From an uncultured bacterium (GTDB lineage: Bacteria > Verrucomicrobiota > Verrucomicrobiia > Verrucomicrobiales > DEV007), in contig CAXBMO010000035.1 in assembly GCA_963977015.1 (NCBI GenBank), forward strand, positions 1 through 50,478: a stretch of DNA of 50,478 bases, in the 5' to 3' direction. The stretch's first letter is position 1. Every line of letters begins with the position of its first letter. The notes beneath the pieces are model-generated. The model searched no databases. It saw nothing but the letters and a program-made list of their open reading frames with translations, and had not been told where the DNA came from. Positions 29,316 to 35,397 of this stretch are shown here, piece after piece. Made by a program: the position numbers and the translations under genes.

Positions 29316-29537
29316 CCCTTCCGCCGCCAACCGGTCCACGTTCGGAATCGGCTGACGTCGAAGAACTGGAAAAGCAAAGGTTGAGTAGAATCAGTGGGAT
29401 TGAAGAAGGACACGAGTGGTCATGGGAATCCCCCATAGACGGTTTTCTTCTTCATCACCAGCAGCCGGTTGATGCACAGGATCGAAAGCAATTGCCTCAT
29501 CTTGTCGACTCCGGCAAGCAAGCTCGACCACGCCGCC

Positions 29538-30284
29538 CTACTCACCCTGCAATTTCTTCAGCGCCGCGATGATGTCTTCCGGTTCGGCCCGGCGACGGTA
29601 GTCGGCGTCGAGGAAGGCGTAGCGAATCACGCCGTCTGTTCCGATCACGTAAGTCGCCGGAAGCGGCAACCGGTCGGCGGCTTTCTCCCCGCTGCGTTCG
29701 ACCAGTTTGAACTTCTCCGCGTAGCGTGCGCGGGTGTCGTCATTGAGTTTGAAAACGAGCCCGTATTGCTCGGCCACCTGGTGATCGATATCGCTGAGAA
29801 CCTCGAAGGGCAGACCCTGTTCCTTGACCGTTTCGGCGGTGGTGTCGGGCAGCTCAGGCGTCAGCGCGACGAGGGTGGCGCCGAGTTCTTTGAAGTCGTC
29901 GTTGTGCTTCGTTAGTGAGGCGAGGGCGATGTTGCAATAAGGACACCAGCCACCGCGATACCAGGTGAGCACCACGGGCCCCTCTTTCAACAGATCGGAA
30001 AGCCGGACCTGGTTGCCGTCGGGATTGCCGAGAGTGAAGTCGGGAGCTTTGTCTCCGACCTTTCGCGCTTGATCGGTGAGTCCCGACGCCTCCAATTCGG
30101 CGAGCGCTTTCTCCTGACTCTGAATGATCTCCGGCGAAGCCTTTTCGAGAAAGGCATCGCGGCGTGCGTCGAGCTGGTCCTGCAGGTCTCCGGCGAGGGT
30201 GGGAAGGGAGGATGTGGTGAGGCCGATGGCGAGAAGGAGTGAGAGGGAGAAGGAGAGCGAAGGGAATGGGGTGGTTGGGTTCAT
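29538..30284 (-). CDS. Peroxiredoxin-like AhpC/TSA family protein with signal peptide
   Basis: VGDKAPDFTL, GPVVLTWYRGGWCPYCN, LVALTPE, LPLPATYVI, DYRRRAEPEDI. Hydrophobic N-terminus. Confidence 0.93.
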   Translation of the reverse strand: MNPTTPFPSLSFSLSLLLAIGLTTSSLPTLAGDLQDQLDARRDAFLEKASPEIIQSQEKALAELEASGLTDQARKVGDKAPDFTLGNPDGNQVRLSDLLKEGPVVLTWYRGGWCPYCNIALASLTKHNDDFKELGATLVALTPELPDTTAETVKEQGLPFEVLSDIDHQVAEQYGLVFKLNDDTRARYAEKFKLVERSGEKAADRLPLPATYVIGTDGVIRYAFLDADYRRRAEPEDIIAALKKLQGE

Positions 30285-30386
30285 GATGGCGGTTAGGAGC
30301 CGGGTGGCGAGTTCAGTGTGATGGCAGGGCGTTGGAAATGCCTACGGCATTCAGAAAGGCACGCGGATTATTTTGATATTTCATTT

Positions 30387-30445
30387 TATCAACGACCGGG
30401 TGCAGCCGCGCCGATCAGGCGTCGGACTGCCACCCATTGTTCGCT
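30387..30445 (-). repeat. attC site (59-base element)
   Basis: Minus strand: AGCGAAC-AATGG-GTGGCAGT-CCGACGCC-TGATC-GGCGCG-GCTGCAC-CCGGTC-GTTGATA = R''(7)/5/L''(8)/stem-loop/L'(7)/6/R'(7), 59 nt in total. Folds into a hairpin with unpaired bases on the R''-L'' arm. Confidence 0.85.
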
Positions 30446-31073
30446 TTTGTTTTTGCTTCCAGGTAGCTGCCCGGCAAAGGCGTGATTTGCTCATTATCAT
30501 GCCAGACAACCGGTTCCGCTTCGAAGTCAACACCCCAATCCACTGGAAGTAAGAAGAACTCACCAATTTCCTCACGATGACAATAGAGTTCCCAGAGACT
30601 CTTTCGTTCAAGATTCTTCGCAACGTTAACATCTAGATTAGAATCTTCTGCGCCTACAAACCAACCCGAATCGCTAGCCTCCTCGGGATCCATTCGATTC
30701 ATAAACCATTGCTCGCATTCATACAAATCCTTGATCACAATCGCACTTTGGCATGCATTGCACCATCCTGGTTCCTCACCGAAGCTATCGGCGACATAAC
30801 GCTGCCGAATCATGAGATTGAGCGCATCTGAACAATCGTCAGAAAATTCCATTGGCATCGACGGATATACTGGAGCTGTGACTTTCTTTCCCCTTTCGTC
30901 ATTCGAAACTTGGAGCCAAATCCACGACATCTGAATTGTATCGTCAACCTTGAACTCCGCGCCCGCGGCGACACTATCTTCGAGGTACGATTTCAACGCT
31001 TCGTAAGCAGGCTCAATTGCATGCGGCGCATAGATTCTCGGCTCTTCCATTCTCCAATATTGTCTAAAGCGAA
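30393..31073 (-). mobile_element. Solitary integron gene cassette (no integrase in window)
   Basis: A single gene with only ~23 nt of leader, bounded by G|TTCGCT (31074-31068) upstream and attC downstream. Upstream GTTCGCTTT is exactly complementary to AAAGCGAAC at R''. Visibly AT-richer than its flanks. Confidence 0.82.
30415..31050 (-). CDS. Imm33-like (DUF2185-related) immunity-type protein, cassette cargo
   Basis: GGAGA directly before the ATG. Motifs MNRMDPEEASDSGWFVGAED and SLWELY...FFLLPVDWGV resemble Imm33/DUF2185. The stop codon lies in the attC loop. Confidence 0.65.
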   Translation of the reverse strand: MEEPRIYAPHAIEPAYEALKSYLEDSVAAGAEFKVDDTIQMSWIWLQVSNDERGKKVTAPVYPSMPMEFSDDCSDALNLMIRQRYVADSFGEEPGWCNACQSAIVIKDLYECEQWFMNRMDPEEASDSGWFVGAEDSNLDVNVAKNLERKSLWELYCHREEIGEFFLLPVDWGVDFEAEPVVWHDNEQITPLPGSYLEAKTKANNGWQSDA

Positions 31074-31081
31074 CTTGGCGA

Positions 31082-33817
31082 TTACTTCGCTCGGAAAACT
31101 TCGCTCTGGATGGCGAGGCGAATGAGGTCGCCGAAGCGGTAGCCCTCAGGAGGCTCTGCTTTGACCAAAGCTTCGACGATCCGTTGATCCCCGACTGAAA
31201 GTTCGCGACCGGCCCCGTATTCGAGGAGCTTGGTGAGCAGGCAGTGGGTGAAGACCTCGGGTCGTTCTTTTAGGAAGCGTTTGATTGAAGGGGCGCCGTT
31301 GAGGGCGGTGCCATCAGGCATGGCGGCACTGGCATCGATGGGTGTCTTGTCAGCTACGTACTTGGTGCGCCACCCGCCGATGGCGTCGTAGTTTTCGAGG
31401 GCGAGACCGAGCGGGTCGATATCGCGGTGGCATTTGGCGCAGGTTTCCAGTTCGGTGTGGGCCTTGAGGGTTTCGCGCACGCTGGTGGCCTGGCTGGTGT
31501 CGATGTCGAGCGCTGGAACGTCCTTCGGCGGAGGCGGCGGGTGTTGGCCGAAGAGATTTTCCAACACCCAAACGCCACGCAGAATCGGTGAGGATTCCAC
31601 GCCGTCGCCCGTCACGGTGAGGACGCCGGGCAGGCCTAACACGCCACCACGATCGAGCACATGACGCGGTAAATCCGGCGAATCCGCAAAGCTGACGCGC
31701 TCCGGTTCGGGCCAAACCAGGCTCTGGCGTTGGCGCGCGTCGACCGCCCCGATACTCTTGTCTCGCTTCGGTTTCATACCCCAAATCACCTGCATCGCAC
31801 TATTGGCGTAGGTGAAATCGGAGTCGATGAAGGTGGAAATCGGAAGGTTATCGCGCAGCACTTCTTCGAAAAACATCTCGGTCGAACGCACGAAGCCATA
31901 GCGCACGGTGTCATTCCACGGGTAGCGATTGTCGCAGACGTTGATCGACTGGACGGTGCGATTTCCGAGCCATTGACCGGTGAAGTGTTTCACAAATTGC
32001 TGGGAACGTGGATCGGCGAGGAGACGCTTGGTCTGCGCGGCGAGAATTCCAGGTTCGGACAGTTTTCCCGCACTTGCGAGTTCGAACAACTCAGCATCGG
32101 GCATCGTGCTCCAGAGAAAATACGAAAGTCGCGAGGCAAGTGCGTGGTCGCTGAGATGCTCGGCATTCTCAGCCTCGCGGTAGAGGAATTGCGGCGAACA
32201 AAGCAGGCGGCGAATCGCGTAGTGCCAGGCAAATTCCGGTTTCCCAGCCCCTGACTCGTTTCCATGCTGCAAAACGGCGGCAATGAGCTTCTCCGATTCT
32301 GCATCAGTCAGGGGACGCCGAAAGGTGCGCTCGGCCAGCGGAAGCAGCTTCGTTTCCAACTCTTCCCGGTCGAGGCTGGGTGGCCAGGCACCAAAAAATT
32401 CGACCACGCGCGGCGGAACGGCGAAGGGGCCTTCGATTTTCAAACCTCGAAGCTCCACCGTCGGCTCGGGCCGCTTATTGATCTTGGTAAGATCCTTGTT
32501 GATCTGGTTCCTGTTTTGGTCGCTCACGCGGTAAGCGTCCGCCGGGAGCCGATTGGAGCAGTAGATGTGCAGCGTTTCGCCGGCCTCGACTGGAACGTCG
32601 CATTCGATCCAGGTCGGATCGCCCGCCGGAATCTCGACCTCCGCCACCAGGGTCGTCCGATCGATTCGGTAGCGTTTCGGCAATTGCTCCTCGGTCGGGT
32701 CAAAGGCGTGGAGGCCAAGCCGCAACGGGTTACCGTCGGCACCGGATTCGGCCTGTGCGTTGGCGTGCAGTTTGATGCGGTAGATCCCGGACGAGGGTGC
32801 AACGAAGCTGCTGTCCCAAAGCGCGCCGACCCAGCCGGAGTGGTTAAAGCCGGTGAACTTGAGAAATTCTCCCTTGGGGCCGAACCAACGCCGCGCCTGG
32901 TCGCCGCCGATGGTTTCTGTCGTCAAGTTAGAGCGGTAAGTCAGCGGATTTGGCAGCGGAACGAAGCGGTCGGCAATGTCGGTTGCCGTTTCGTGGTAAG
33001 CCTCCATCACCGCTGGCGAAAGGAACAGTCCCGCGGGCATCGTGTCGAATTCTTCGCTGGTCGCATCCTCAGGAAACGAGAGCGGTAAGTCGATCATGCG
33101 CATCCCGAAGAGGTCGCGGACCGTGTTGAGGTATTCGTTTCGGTTCAGCCGACGCACTGGCGTGCCACCCGGTTTGGCGGATTGATCAGCCTTGGCAAAG
33201 GCATTTTCGAGGTGGGTTAGAAACTTTTGCTTCGTAGCTTCGTCCGGGTGAGCCTTTGCCTTTTTTGGCGGCATATCACCTTCGGAGATATAGTCGCGAA
33301 CAAGTTCCCATTGCTCCCGGGTATCAGTGTCGATGAGATCCCAGGGTAAGGTATCGATTTGAAAGTCACCTTTTTGTTCATCCGCGTTGTGGCAGGTCGA
33401 ACAGTATTGCTCGGTGAATTGGGTGATTGCTCCGGGTGCGGTATCGGCAGCAAAACTATTGTTCGAAATCGAAAGGCAAATCATCGTGAAGACGAGCACC
33501 AACCGATTCGGGACTGTGCCGCAAAGTATCGATTTTAACCCGAAGGGTTTCGAGCGATTAGCCTTGGATTGAGCGAAGCGATATCCAGGGGATAAAACGG
33601 AGAAAATTTTGAACCCGAAGGGTTCGCAGCGCCGGAATTCAACAGGCTGTGACCCCTCCGGGGTCAACTTTGATTGATCACTACACCCGGGTATCGCTTC
33701 GCTCAACCCGGGGCTAATCGCTTTGAAACCCTTCGGGTTAGGTATAGGTAGTGCAATCGAAGCATTCCCTGGCTGCATTCCAGCCTTCCGTCCTTTTTTG
33801 CCCAAAACACTCCTCAT
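31082..33817 (-). CDS. DUF1592/DUF1588/DUF1587/DUF1595/DUF1585 Planctomycete cytochrome c protein (start uncertain)
   Basis: CSTCH, MPP, RRLNRNEYLNTVRDL, SPQFLYR, LASRLSYFLWSTMPDAEL, FTGQWL, SSPILRGVWV, CAKCHRDIDPLGLALENYDAIG, GR. The ATG overlaps the DUF1552 stop (ATGA), but the signal peptide only begins ~33500. Confidence 0.92.
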   Translation of the reverse strand: MRSVLGKKGRKAGMQPGNASIALPIPNPKGFKAISPGLSEAIPGCSDQSKLTPEGSQPVEFRRCEPFGFKIFSVLSPGYRFAQSKANRSKPFGLKSILCGTVPNRLVLVFTMICLSISNNSFAADTAPGAITQFTEQYCSTCHNADEQKGDFQIDTLPWDLIDTDTREQWELVRDYISEGDMPPKKAKAHPDEATKQKFLTHLENAFAKADQSAKPGGTPVRRLNRNEYLNTVRDLFGMRMIDLPLSFPEDATSEEFDTMPAGLFLSPAVMEAYHETATDIADRFVPLPNPLTYRSNLTTETIGGDQARRWFGPKGEFLKFTGFNHSGWVGALWDSSFVAPSSGIYRIKLHANAQAESGADGNPLRLGLHAFDPTEEQLPKRYRIDRTTLVAEVEIPAGDPTWIECDVPVEAGETLHIYCSNRLPADAYRVSDQNRNQINKDLTKINKRPEPTVELRGLKIEGPFAVPPRVVEFFGAWPPSLDREELETKLLPLAERTFRRPLTDAESEKLIAAVLQHGNESGAGKPEFAWHYAIRRLLCSPQFLYREAENAEHLSDHALASRLSYFLWSTMPDAELFELASAGKLSEPGILAAQTKRLLADPRSQQFVKHFTGQWLGNRTVQSINVCDNRYPWNDTVRYGFVRSTEMFFEEVLRDNLPISTFIDSDFTYANSAMQVIWGMKPKRDKSIGAVDARQRQSLVWPEPERVSFADSPDLPRHVLDRGGVLGLPGVLTVTGDGVESSPILRGVWVLENLFGQHPPPPPKDVPALDIDTSQATSVRETLKAHTELETCAKCHRDIDPLGLALENYDAIGGWRTKYVADKTPIDASAAMPDGTALNGAPSIKRFLKERPEVFTHCLLTKLLEYGAGRELSVGDQRIVEALVKAEPPEGYRFGDLIRLAIQSEVFRAK
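33536..33740. repeat. ~205-bp nested palindromic REP/REPIN- or MITE-like element
   Basis: Outer ~55-bp imperfect inverted repeats: taacccgaagggtttcgagcgattagccttggattgagcgaagcgata ... tatcgcttcgctcaacccggggctaatcgctttgaaacccttcgggtta. Inner IR: gaacccgaagggttcgcagc / gctgtgacccctccggggtc. Each arm contains small acccgaagggt hairpins. Confidence 0.85.
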
Positions 33818-35073
33818 AGCAACGCTCCGTTCAGATTCGACTGGCTTGTAGCAAAGGATTCCATCTCGAACCCCAGCTTTTGCAAAACCGTCACGTAGAG
33901 ATCGCAGGCCATCTCGTTTTTGTGCTCGTGGTCCGCCCCGCAGGAAAGATGCCGCTGGTGCCGATACCCGCCGCCCGCAACCATCAGCGGAAAGTCGACC
34001 CGACGATGTTTCGAGGCATCCGCCATCGCGCTGCCGATCAGCACCGTGGTGTTGTCGAGCGTGTTCGAGCCATCGATATCGCGCGTCTCGTTCAGCGCCT
34101 TCATGAAACGCGCCGCCTCGCTCATGTGGGCCGATTCGATCGCGACCAACTGGTCGACTTTCTCCGTTTTGTTCCCGTGATGCGACAAGTTGTGGTAACC
34201 AGCCGACATCAGCTCGTCGCCGAGCATCAGCGCGCCATCGGCCAGCGGAATCGTCAGTGAAAAGACGCGGCAGGCGTCATTTTTGATCGCCAACGCCATC
34301 AAATCCCACATCAAATCCTCGTTTTGAATCATCATCGAATGCGCGATCGTCTCCTCCTCCGGCAGGGAGAAATTTGCATCCGGCCTGGGGAACGGTTTAT
34401 CGAGCCAATCCTGTCGGCGAGCGAGCTTTCGCTCCACATCGCGCACGCTGGTGAAGTATTCGTCCAGCTTATCGCGGTCCCCGGCGCTAACGCGACCACT
34501 GAGCATCTTGGCATCGGCAGTCACGTCGTCGAGCAGGCTGCGGCCGGATTCGAGGAGATACTGTTGCCGCTCCATGTCCGCTGCTTTGCCGCCGAACACC
34601 TTGGCAAACATCACGCTCGGCCGCAAAATCGGTGGCAGCGGGATGCCGTTCTTGTTCAGCGAGACCGGCGCGTTGAACCGCTGCTCGCCCGCGCAGAGTT
34701 GGAGCGATTCATACCGCGTTTCCGCTCCCATTTTCGGCGCGACGAGTTGATCGAGCGAAATGCTCTTCGTCACCTGGCCGGTGAAGAGGGTGTAGACTAA
34801 CGCGTGACCGTTCCCAGTCGGCCCTTTGTGGTCGAGACCGGAAATGGTGGTGAGTTTGTCGCCGACACCCGCGTCGTCGAAGGGCTTGATGAGCCGCGCG
34901 CCGGGTTTGTCTGCGAAAAAGTCCGGCTTGTACCAACCGAGCTGAGTTCCGGCGACGACGAGGCGTTTGGGCGCCGTGGCCTCAGCCTTTCCTGAGGCGA
35001 GCGAGGGCAAAAGTGGAAGCGCCAGAGTGGCGGATGAGGATCGCAGAAAACTGCGGCGTGTTTGAGGCTTCAT
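33814..35073 (-). CDS. DUF1552 (HXXSHH) family protein, Tat-exported
   Basis: TRRSFL, ALPLLPSL, PKRL, SISLDQLVA, RSLLD, DRDKLDEYFTSVRDVERKL, YHNLSHHG, LDNT, CDLYVTVLQKLG. Confidence 0.93.
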   Translation of the reverse strand: MKPQTRRSFLRSSSATLALPLLPSLASGKAEATAPKRLVVAGTQLGWYKPDFFADKPGARLIKPFDDAGVGDKLTTISGLDHKGPTGNGHALVYTLFTGQVTKSISLDQLVAPKMGAETRYESLQLCAGEQRFNAPVSLNKNGIPLPPILRPSVMFAKVFGGKAADMERQQYLLESGRSLLDDVTADAKMLSGRVSAGDRDKLDEYFTSVRDVERKLARRQDWLDKPFPRPDANFSLPEEETIAHSMMIQNEDLMWDLMALAIKNDACRVFSLTIPLADGALMLGDELMSAGYHNLSHHGNKTEKVDQLVAIESAHMSEAARFMKALNETRDIDGSNTLDNTTVLIGSAMADASKHRRVDFPLMVAGGGYRHQRHLSCGADHEHKNEMACDLYVTVLQKLGFEMESFATSQSNLNGALL

Positions 35074-35397
35074 TAATTTTATCGGAATCAGGATTCGGCA
35101 ATCCAGCCGGTTTCTTAACAAGACACCCTAGCCTTTTGATAGGCTGGCGGGAAGATAATTGCACTTTCGGGATCACAGAATCAGGGGCGGGCTACGCCTC
35201 CACGCTCGCCATCAAAAAATCAAAAAAGCGTTGGGCGTAGGGATGCGCCTGATCGGTGAGGCCGGACCCCTGTAAGTCGGCGAGAGTGTTCCTTCACCCA
35301 TCGATTCGAATCTGACGGCCCACGATTGTGACCTATCTGCGGCCTTGCGCGGTCGTTCGCCTTCTCCTAACCTTCCGGAAACTCCCAAATTTCCCGC

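Follow-up and report, generated by a model that had tools for sequence, protein, structure and literature searches.

The window analysed here is the whole of contig C35 (50,478 nt) of a genome labelled G000, and all statements about the locus refer to its minus strand. The stretch 30393-31073, which carries a gene for an Imm33-like protein (P0001), is read with a probability of about 0.9 as one cassette that was inserted by an integron integrase (IntI) at a non-att genomic 5'-G|TT-3' site, 8 nt past the stop codon of a DUF1592-family gene. The event would be an attC x attG recombination, and its product a lone attC site that has no integron-integrase (SALIN). Solitary cassettes at GWT sites of genomes (SALIN, attG) have already been described and this gene-capture route is known. 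The window cassette leaves the known mechanism unchanged; its merit lies in the quality of the natural evidence and in the unusual host. It is a natural instance in which the attC site is validated by models from foreign arrays, the cassette ends are exact, and a sister strain has the cassette-free allele, and together these results support attC x attG recombination operating in nature. The features of the locus are as follows.

30393-31073 (-): cassette unit, 681 nt; its first bases are the TT past the left crossover and its last base is the G of the right GTT
31074-31072 (-): GTT of the left junction; G31074 is target, TT31073-31072 is the first cassette dinucleotide, with the crossover at G|TT
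31074-31066 (-): GTTCGCTTT, complementary to the 9 nt whose last three are the AAC of R'', and the other half of the R' of the circular cassette
31055-31052 (-): putative GGAG ribosome-binding site inside the cassette, 1 nt ahead of the ATG, read from the sequence
31050-30415 (-): cassette open reading frame (ORF) of P0001, 211 aa, with an N-terminal alpha/beta domain and an Imm33-like domain (residues 83-185)
30445-30387 (-): attC site, 59 nt, from the fold, covariation and the covariance models R1 and R2
30445-30439 (-): R'' of the attC site, AGCGAAC
30435-30418 (-): 5' stem arm of the attC site, with bulges at 30430, 30426 and 30422
30417-30413 (-): loop of the attC site
30412-30398 (-): 3' arm of the attC site
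30393-30387 (-): R' of the attC site, GTTGATA
30319-30392 (-): target DNA downstream, the TT of the right GTT and a 72-nt spacer up to an AhpC/TSA-like gene

The attC site and the two ends of the cassette

Folded as single-stranded DNA, the hairpin at the end of the cassette gene reached -17 kcal/mol (z -3.5), a value that none of 200 shuffles equalled. Its core triplets, AAC at 30441-30439 and GTT at 30393-30391, stand on the strand of the gene, and the last four bases of R' are target-derived. The hairpin is imperfect, with paired L''/L' boxes, an unpaired central spacer and a terminal loop, and every one of its three single-base bulges lies on the R''/L'' (5') arm, at alignment positions 16, 20 and 24. 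This 59-nt structure with extrahelical bases on one arm agrees with the original prediction, which had claimed canonical attC spacing and had also placed the end of the Imm33-like gene inside the attC site; the TGA of the gene (30417-30415) lies in the hairpin loop. The last ~10 residues of P0001 and its stop are encoded by attC, and this extension is missing from most relatives of the protein.

BLAST of the attC site against its own genome matched a core of 23 nt on contig C41 and one of 15 nt on contig C6. The two sister sites found in this way (C41:14094-14152 and C6:271830-271888) align without gaps with the window attC. In the three-site alignment, conservation covers the outer triplets as well as the loop and the inner stem. 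All six pairs of the L-box helix differ and all of these differences are compensatory; 98.1% of 54 cells are paired and no slid register exceeds 44%. Compensatory changes were found in 6 of the 18 attC pairs among these three sites. An early structural pattern scan near IntI and loose genome-wide regular expressions were far too permissive, and only the three true sites stood out from them.

The covariance model R1 was built from the C41 and C6 sites alone. It scored the window attC at 59.4 bits (E 3e-12) and gave no other match in the 6.9-Mb genome at E <= 10. When it was run on 150 other genomes of the order, matches were obtained in two, G041 and G083, which belong to one genus of the same family. 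The sites in these two genomes stand in rows, 0.6-4 kb apart and on one strand, and are thus cassette arrays. They comprise 27 matches (23 distinct), with 91.7% of 397 cells paired, compared with 66.1% in shuffles; 14 of the 18 pairs change on both sides among the 23 sites, and the covariation score was reached by none of 500 shuffles. The alignment of the 23 sites was fitted to the model and therefore leans towards structure. A second covariance model, R2, was built only from the array sites of G041 and G083 and was run with filters off. It scored the window attC at 67.5 bits (E 5e-18), and the runner-up in the 50-kb contig reached 12.4 bits. Both models are lineage-specific and were built without the window site. 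The hairpin is a genuine attC site, and the lineage-specific family to which it belongs makes up cassette arrays in related genomes. A plasmid BLAST with the site returned 28 records, all of them short chance matches (E >= 0.2).

The R'' 7-mer AGCGAAC fits the consensus RYYYAAC at two of its four degenerate positions. That R'' is not RYYYAAC had been noted before and is true, although CGAAC is the norm for the lineage, standing at the place of R'' in 18 of the 23 distinct array sites of the related genomes. With the classical attC sites aadA7, oxa2 and VCR2, as presented in the part of Nivina et al. (2016; PMC5027507) used here, the window attC shares the AAC/GTT triplets, the unpaired central spacer and the variable terminal loop. 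The number of extrahelical bases (three) and the length of 59 nt are further likenesses to that part of the source, and the furthest extrahelical base of the window site would be T on the bottom strand, as there. The window site differs from the classical ones in an R'' that fits the lineage CGAAC and not RYYYAAC, and its recombination is only predicted.

At the other end of the cassette, GTTCGCTTT (31074-31066) is the exact reverse complement of AAAGCGAAC (30447-30439). This 9-mer has just these two sites across the window, with 0.64 expected. The complement of R'' begins at G|TT and sits 16 nt before the ATG, where the original prediction had placed it, just upstream of the gene. The cassette therefore opens with TT and the complement of its own R'' and closes with the G of R'; joined into a circle, it would regain a 9-bp paired R box. 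Both cassette ends are those expected of recombination at G|TT, and deleting 30393-31073 joins G31074 straight to TT 30392-30391, again as had been claimed. The two ends of the cassette are halves of one R' site. The same end signature, a complement of 7-9 nt, was found at 6 of 8 attC sites checked in G000, the window's own included. Within these ends, a single ORF is oriented towards the attC site, and the G+C content is 45-49%, which is 10-15 points lower than the 59-64% of the flanks.

Proposed insertion at a genomic GTT site and its alternatives

According to the established integron mechanism, the cassette would have existed as an excised circle, and IntI would have bound the folded bottom strand of its attC site. 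One strand would then have been exchanged with the double-stranded target between G and TT, the partner being a genomic GTT and not attI, and replication would have resolved the junction. The genes on both sides of the insertion are as follows.

33814-35121: DUF1552 gene, with a 4-nt overlap with the DUF1592-family gene
31082-33817 (-): DUF1592-family gene (PSD/PSCyt domains), an ORF with Pfam PF07631, PF07627, PF07626, PF07624 and PF07586
29538-30284 (-): AhpC/TSA-family gene (Pfam), the downstream neighbour outside the cassette

The TAA of the DUF1592-family gene (31084-31082) is followed by seven bases and then by G31074. The original prediction of a co-oriented cassette about 8 bp past this stop agrees with the coordinates base for base. 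The gene is whole, and its C-terminus and stop position are kept in the orthologue of a genome of the same genus (G002:C54). From their 4-nt overlap, the DUF1552 and DUF1592 genes are taken to form an operon, which lies upstream of the cassette. A consensus scan of 29400-31400 called no promoter-like site on the minus strand, and no terminator-like site on that strand between the operon and the cassette gene. The cassette gene is thus a promoterless gene with its own GGAG, co-oriented and 31 nt behind the operon, and from this arrangement its transcription by read-through from the DUF1552/DUF1592 operon is plausible. The locus speaks for an attC x attG route that can in this way put a promoterless gene behind a resident operon.

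The decisive result on the insertion came from contigs assembled from public runs. In run X5, which comes from a different study, one Logan contig of 1817 nt joins window position 31072 to 30318 via 70 letters. It matches the window over 31524-31072 (5 differences in 453 nt) and over 30318-29026 (28 differences and 1 gap in 1293 nt), so the strain is ~98% identical, and the 70 letters replace window 30319-31071. The contig parts from the window right behind the TT of the left GTT. If the 681-nt cassette alone were missing, 72 nt would be expected between the matched parts, and X5 has 70. An empty site in relatives had been proposed as a check, and this contig without the cassette breaks at the predicted left G|TT. 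The results showed that a near-identical strain has the same locus without the cassette, with what is probably an uninterrupted site where the cassette of the window is inserted at a 5'-GWT-3' sequence (GTT, 31074-31072).

With the cassette present, contigs of X1 and X2 bridge the left junction and a contig of X3 the right one; these runs belong to one study, from which the assembly may derive. The metagenome scaffold L023 agrees fully with the window, cassette included, but it may come from the same sample and is not counted as independent. Among 40 related genomes, an orthologous DUF1592 gene was found only in G002:C54, with no cassette behind it; the DNA downstream of this orthologue is unrelated, so no empty site can be taken from G002. 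A 742-nt contig of X5 (record 27) contains an attC identical over window 30391-30443, from the C of R'' to the TT of R', with no differences. It has other DNA on both sides of the attC, so that the same recombination site stands in another context there.

The whole 50,478-nt contig contains no TIGR02249 (intI) match, no second attC (R2 above 12.4 bits) and no attI-like repeat. The profile, R2 and repeat searches therefore agree with the earlier statement that the window holds neither intI nor attI, and on the whole contig this attC stands alone, without a further att site or an intI in its neighbourhood. In the part of Loot et al. (bioRxiv 10.1101/2022.09.11.507474) used here, attC x attG recombination is demonstrated in E. 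coli with a 5'-GWT-3' consensus, 3400 SALINs are counted in RefSeq genomes with attC x attG proposed as their origin, and expression is given only for insertions near a resident promoter. The window locus shares with the SALINs described there one coding sequence and one attC, the lack of another att site or intI nearby, and a GWT site (here GTT). The inserted gene also lies behind a resident transcription unit, which is the condition for expression in that part of the preprint. More than one SALIN is reported there in 622 of 2469 SALIN-bearing genomes, and the same may hold for G000. The IntI1 hot-spot motif CRGM (+6 to +9) of the same source is missing, as the window has AAAA at this place, but the motif was defined for IntI1 in E. 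coli only. Two further things set the window apart from the cases of Loot et al.: its host, a marine bacterium known only from uncultured material, carries PSD/PSCyt genes of the planctomycete type, and a natural cassette-free allele is documented here. The host lineage is of the Limisphaerales type and thus remote from the enterobacteria that served to demonstrate attG insertion.

The G000 assembly consists of 51 contigs (95% complete, 2% contamination). A genome-wide search for intI, also proposed earlier, found one intact IntI, the only one of the assembly, on contig C1 (C1:216518-217420; TIGR02249 290-291 bits, cut-off 265). The protein aligns to residues 19-317 of VchIntIA (2a3v) with E 6e-55, the IntI-specific stretch and the catalytic motifs included. 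Orthologues 72-75% identical to it occur in two better genomes of the same genus (G001:C27 and G002:C119). From ~16 kb upstream to ~18 kb downstream of the C1 gene, there was no R2 match above 12.3 bits and no attI-like repeat, and the repeat search around the gene found no array, so the locus is In0-like. Acting in trans, this only IntI of the genome probably did the insertion. At the locus (C1:216131-217426; L007 16132-17427), the IntI gene has an N-terminal extension of ~130 aa, and the family has repeated instances of IntI open frames 431-474 aa long.

Several results weigh against an attC x attG insertion of this kind or against single parts of it. The R'' AGCGAAC departs from RYYYAAC at two positions, and the bulged L-box base (position 16) would be C on the bottom strand, whereas the L-box extrahelical base is usually G in the part of Nivina et al. 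(PMC5027507) used here. An Rfam scan of 29800-31600 gave no attC family and only three chance matches to eukaryotic long non-coding RNAs. Behind the homologues of the cassette gene in metagenome loci, just one clear and one possible attC hairpin were found among the 12 that were folded. The C1 IntI is only 32-35% identical to the IntI of the array genomes G041 and G083, and to that of G001:C21, and may therefore not be the acting enzyme; in an assembly of 51 contigs with 2% contamination, the IntI contig could also belong to another population. The cassette-free allele rests on one assembled contig of depth 5 and not on raw reads; its right-hand breakpoint is inferred and not seen, and so is the identity of the 70 letters with a diverged 72-nt spacer.

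Among other explanations, the one that survives best holds that the cassette is ancestral at the locus and that the X5 strain lost it by IntI-mediated excision. Two alleles give no direction of change, but we regard such a loss as unlikely: the low G+C content shows that the cassette is foreign to the locus either way, and after insertion all that remains at the left site is a GTT lacking attC structure, so that an exact excision becomes harder. In G002, of the same genus, the orthologue also has no cassette behind it, although its downstream DNA differs too. The cassette could instead be the last survivor of a decayed array, that is, an attC-site cluster that lacks an integron-integrase (CALIN), eroded to one cassette where an integron formerly stood, with no fresh secondary-site insertion. 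Many integrase-less short arrays are present in G000, and CALINs are commonly read as integron remnants in the part of Loot et al. (bioRxiv 10.1101/2022.09.11.507474) used here, but this history is very improbable given a left junction 8 nt past an intact, conserved stop codon, a contig without any attI-like repeat or attC remnant, and flanks ~70 nt apart in the ~98%-identical strain, which fits precise presence or absence of 681 nt. An ordinary terminator or REP-like (repetitive extragenic) palindrome behind a horizontally acquired gene that arrived by another route, with a chance 9-nt match, would account for a hairpin at the 3' end of the gene and for the lack of a link to known attC sites in Foldseek, Rfam and plasmid BLAST, yet it is scarcely credible beside a stem with no following T-run and no terminator-like site called on the minus strand, 67.5 bits with the foreign-array model R2, bulges and unpaired spacers at attC positions, the same end signature at five other attC sites of G000, and group II intron 5' ends that abut the GTT of sister attC sites.

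Dispersed attI-like repeats and other cassettes of the genome

A more interesting lead than the window cassette comes from the rest of G000, where integrase-less attI-like repeats head short arrays and group II introns appear at attC sites. Two families of a ~260-nt non-coding repeat are present, with 7 and 6-7 copies, and each ends in G|TT. Their positions on the contigs of G000 are as follows.

Type 1 repeat, 3' ends: C19:70427(+), C36:46008(-), C41:1061(-), C18:49734(-), C6:272630(-), C41:181(-), C41:14617(-)
Type 2 repeat, 3' ends: C6:19412(+), C6:340640(+), C31:29461(-), C30:31956(-), C36:21721(-), C19:19547(-), and, as an incomplete copy, C28:80616-80852(+)
Further attC sites of the same family (R2 37.8-63 bits): C11:159563-159687(+), C36:11939-11997(-), C36:42716-42840(-), C31:28164-28291(-), C6:342018-342075(+)

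Past G|TT the repeat copies diverge, and an ORF begins 11-25 nt on. At 8 of the 13 copies, the complement of the first >=7 bases after the crossover plus C recurs 450-1400 nt downstream, and this recurrence opens an attC-like hairpin at five of the eight; shifted control words gave 12 matches in 156. The repeats head arrays of one to at least four cassettes, and the other cassettes of G000 are mostly not at random sites. The repeats carry TTGACA-like boxes and, beside the crossover, either a GGATATC-containing repeat or a 12-bp palindrome. They are read as attI-like sites that were multiplied or orphaned, and as dispersed platforms. They adjoin none of the IntI genes examined in G000, G001, G002, G041 and G083, and they have no Rfam match.

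The contig G002:C302 (locus L074) contains the orthologue of the type 1 repeat of C19 (172-430, -) with the same first cassette, 1.3 kb from an IntI gene. This IntI gene (1683-2486, +; 279.5 bits with TIGR02249) is divergent and looks N-terminally truncated or disrupted. A ~150-nt multi-copy repeat lies at its 5' side, and the integrase is lost at the matching locus of G000. This arrangement suggests that at least the C19 copy descends from a complete integron platform. The window cassette lies off any repeat platform, which fits a secondary-site event. It may be the off-platform spill-over of a distributed integron, in which the one In0-type IntI of C1 serves 13-14 dispersed integrase-less platforms, an idea that we put forward tentatively and at somewhat less than even odds. 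If it is true, attI-like sites can multiply and can work far away from their integrase, with the genome sampling cassettes at many promoters simultaneously. A literature search with supplements outside its scope, and hence weak evidence, found no description of such a dispersed arrangement of integrase-less attI-like repeats heading arrays.

Three of the further attC sites have a length of 125-128 nt, and their terminal structure is large. On C11, the left junction of the attC site lacks a platform repeat, and this may be a second off-platform cassette. In another genome, the locus L075 (G001:C5, 2654-3860, -) has a type 2 repeat with the palindrome and G|TT, and 130 nt on a Xer-like tyrosine recombinase of 299 aa, which scores 144 bits with TIGR02249, below the cut-off, and is without the IntI-specific stretch. 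The ~150-nt repeat beside the IntI gene of L074 (1546-1696) occurs at ~25 places in G000, e.g. C2:159424-159581 and C1:503773-503923, with copies 74-81% identical, and may be a miniature transposable element.

The association of group II introns with attC sites is known. In the present genomes, a conserved sequence of ~50 nt starting with GTGCG directly follows the GTT of an attC at C6:343032-343405 (L063 6157-6406), C36:11897-11946, C28:64115-64166 and L074 1-53. At C6 it is followed by an Rfam match to group II intron D1-D4 (55.1 bits, gathering score 49). The GTGCG sequences have the look of group II introns that were inserted into attC sites.

The cassette protein and its relatives

P0001 matches the Pfam family Imm33-like (PF24719) with 33.4 bits (cut-off 27) over residues 83-185, and NCBIfam has no family for it. 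A search of 5.8 billion clustered proteins gave it only 15 relatives, all metagenomic and mostly on short contigs. In the domain annotation, all 16 relatives share the precomputed Imm33-like domain, and the closest named relative is a protein of a Limisphaerales metagenome-assembled genome. A search for related loci among genome contigs found no relative of P0001. Going by the family name only, P0001 most likely neutralises a polymorphic toxin of competitors.

The predicted structure of P0001 is confident (predicted local distance difference test score, pLDDT, 91.4), and a Foldseek search of it against the PDB gave nothing at E <= 0.001. A bacterial SUFU homologue was considered as the fold of residues 1-75, but the best VIA-align result (Z 3.9, root-mean-square deviation 3.8, 71 residues aligned) was too weak, and this candidate was rejected.

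To look for cassettes around the homologues of P0001, R2 was applied to 13 non-self metagenome loci that carry them, and nothing exceeded 18.3 bits. The DNA behind the homologues was also folded at 12 of the 13 loci, all but L029. Energy densities at randomly chosen centres of these loci are similar (5th percentile -0.477), and energy by itself is therefore no means of discrimination. At L036, a clear attC-type hairpin of 88 nt (187-282, +), of another sequence family, starts at the stop codon of the homologue. At L025, a possible attC-type hairpin of 53 nt (1334-1386, +), also of another sequence family, lies behind the homologue. A homologue followed by an attC-type hairpin at L036, and perhaps at L025, suggests that the P0001 family has travelled as a cassette more than once.

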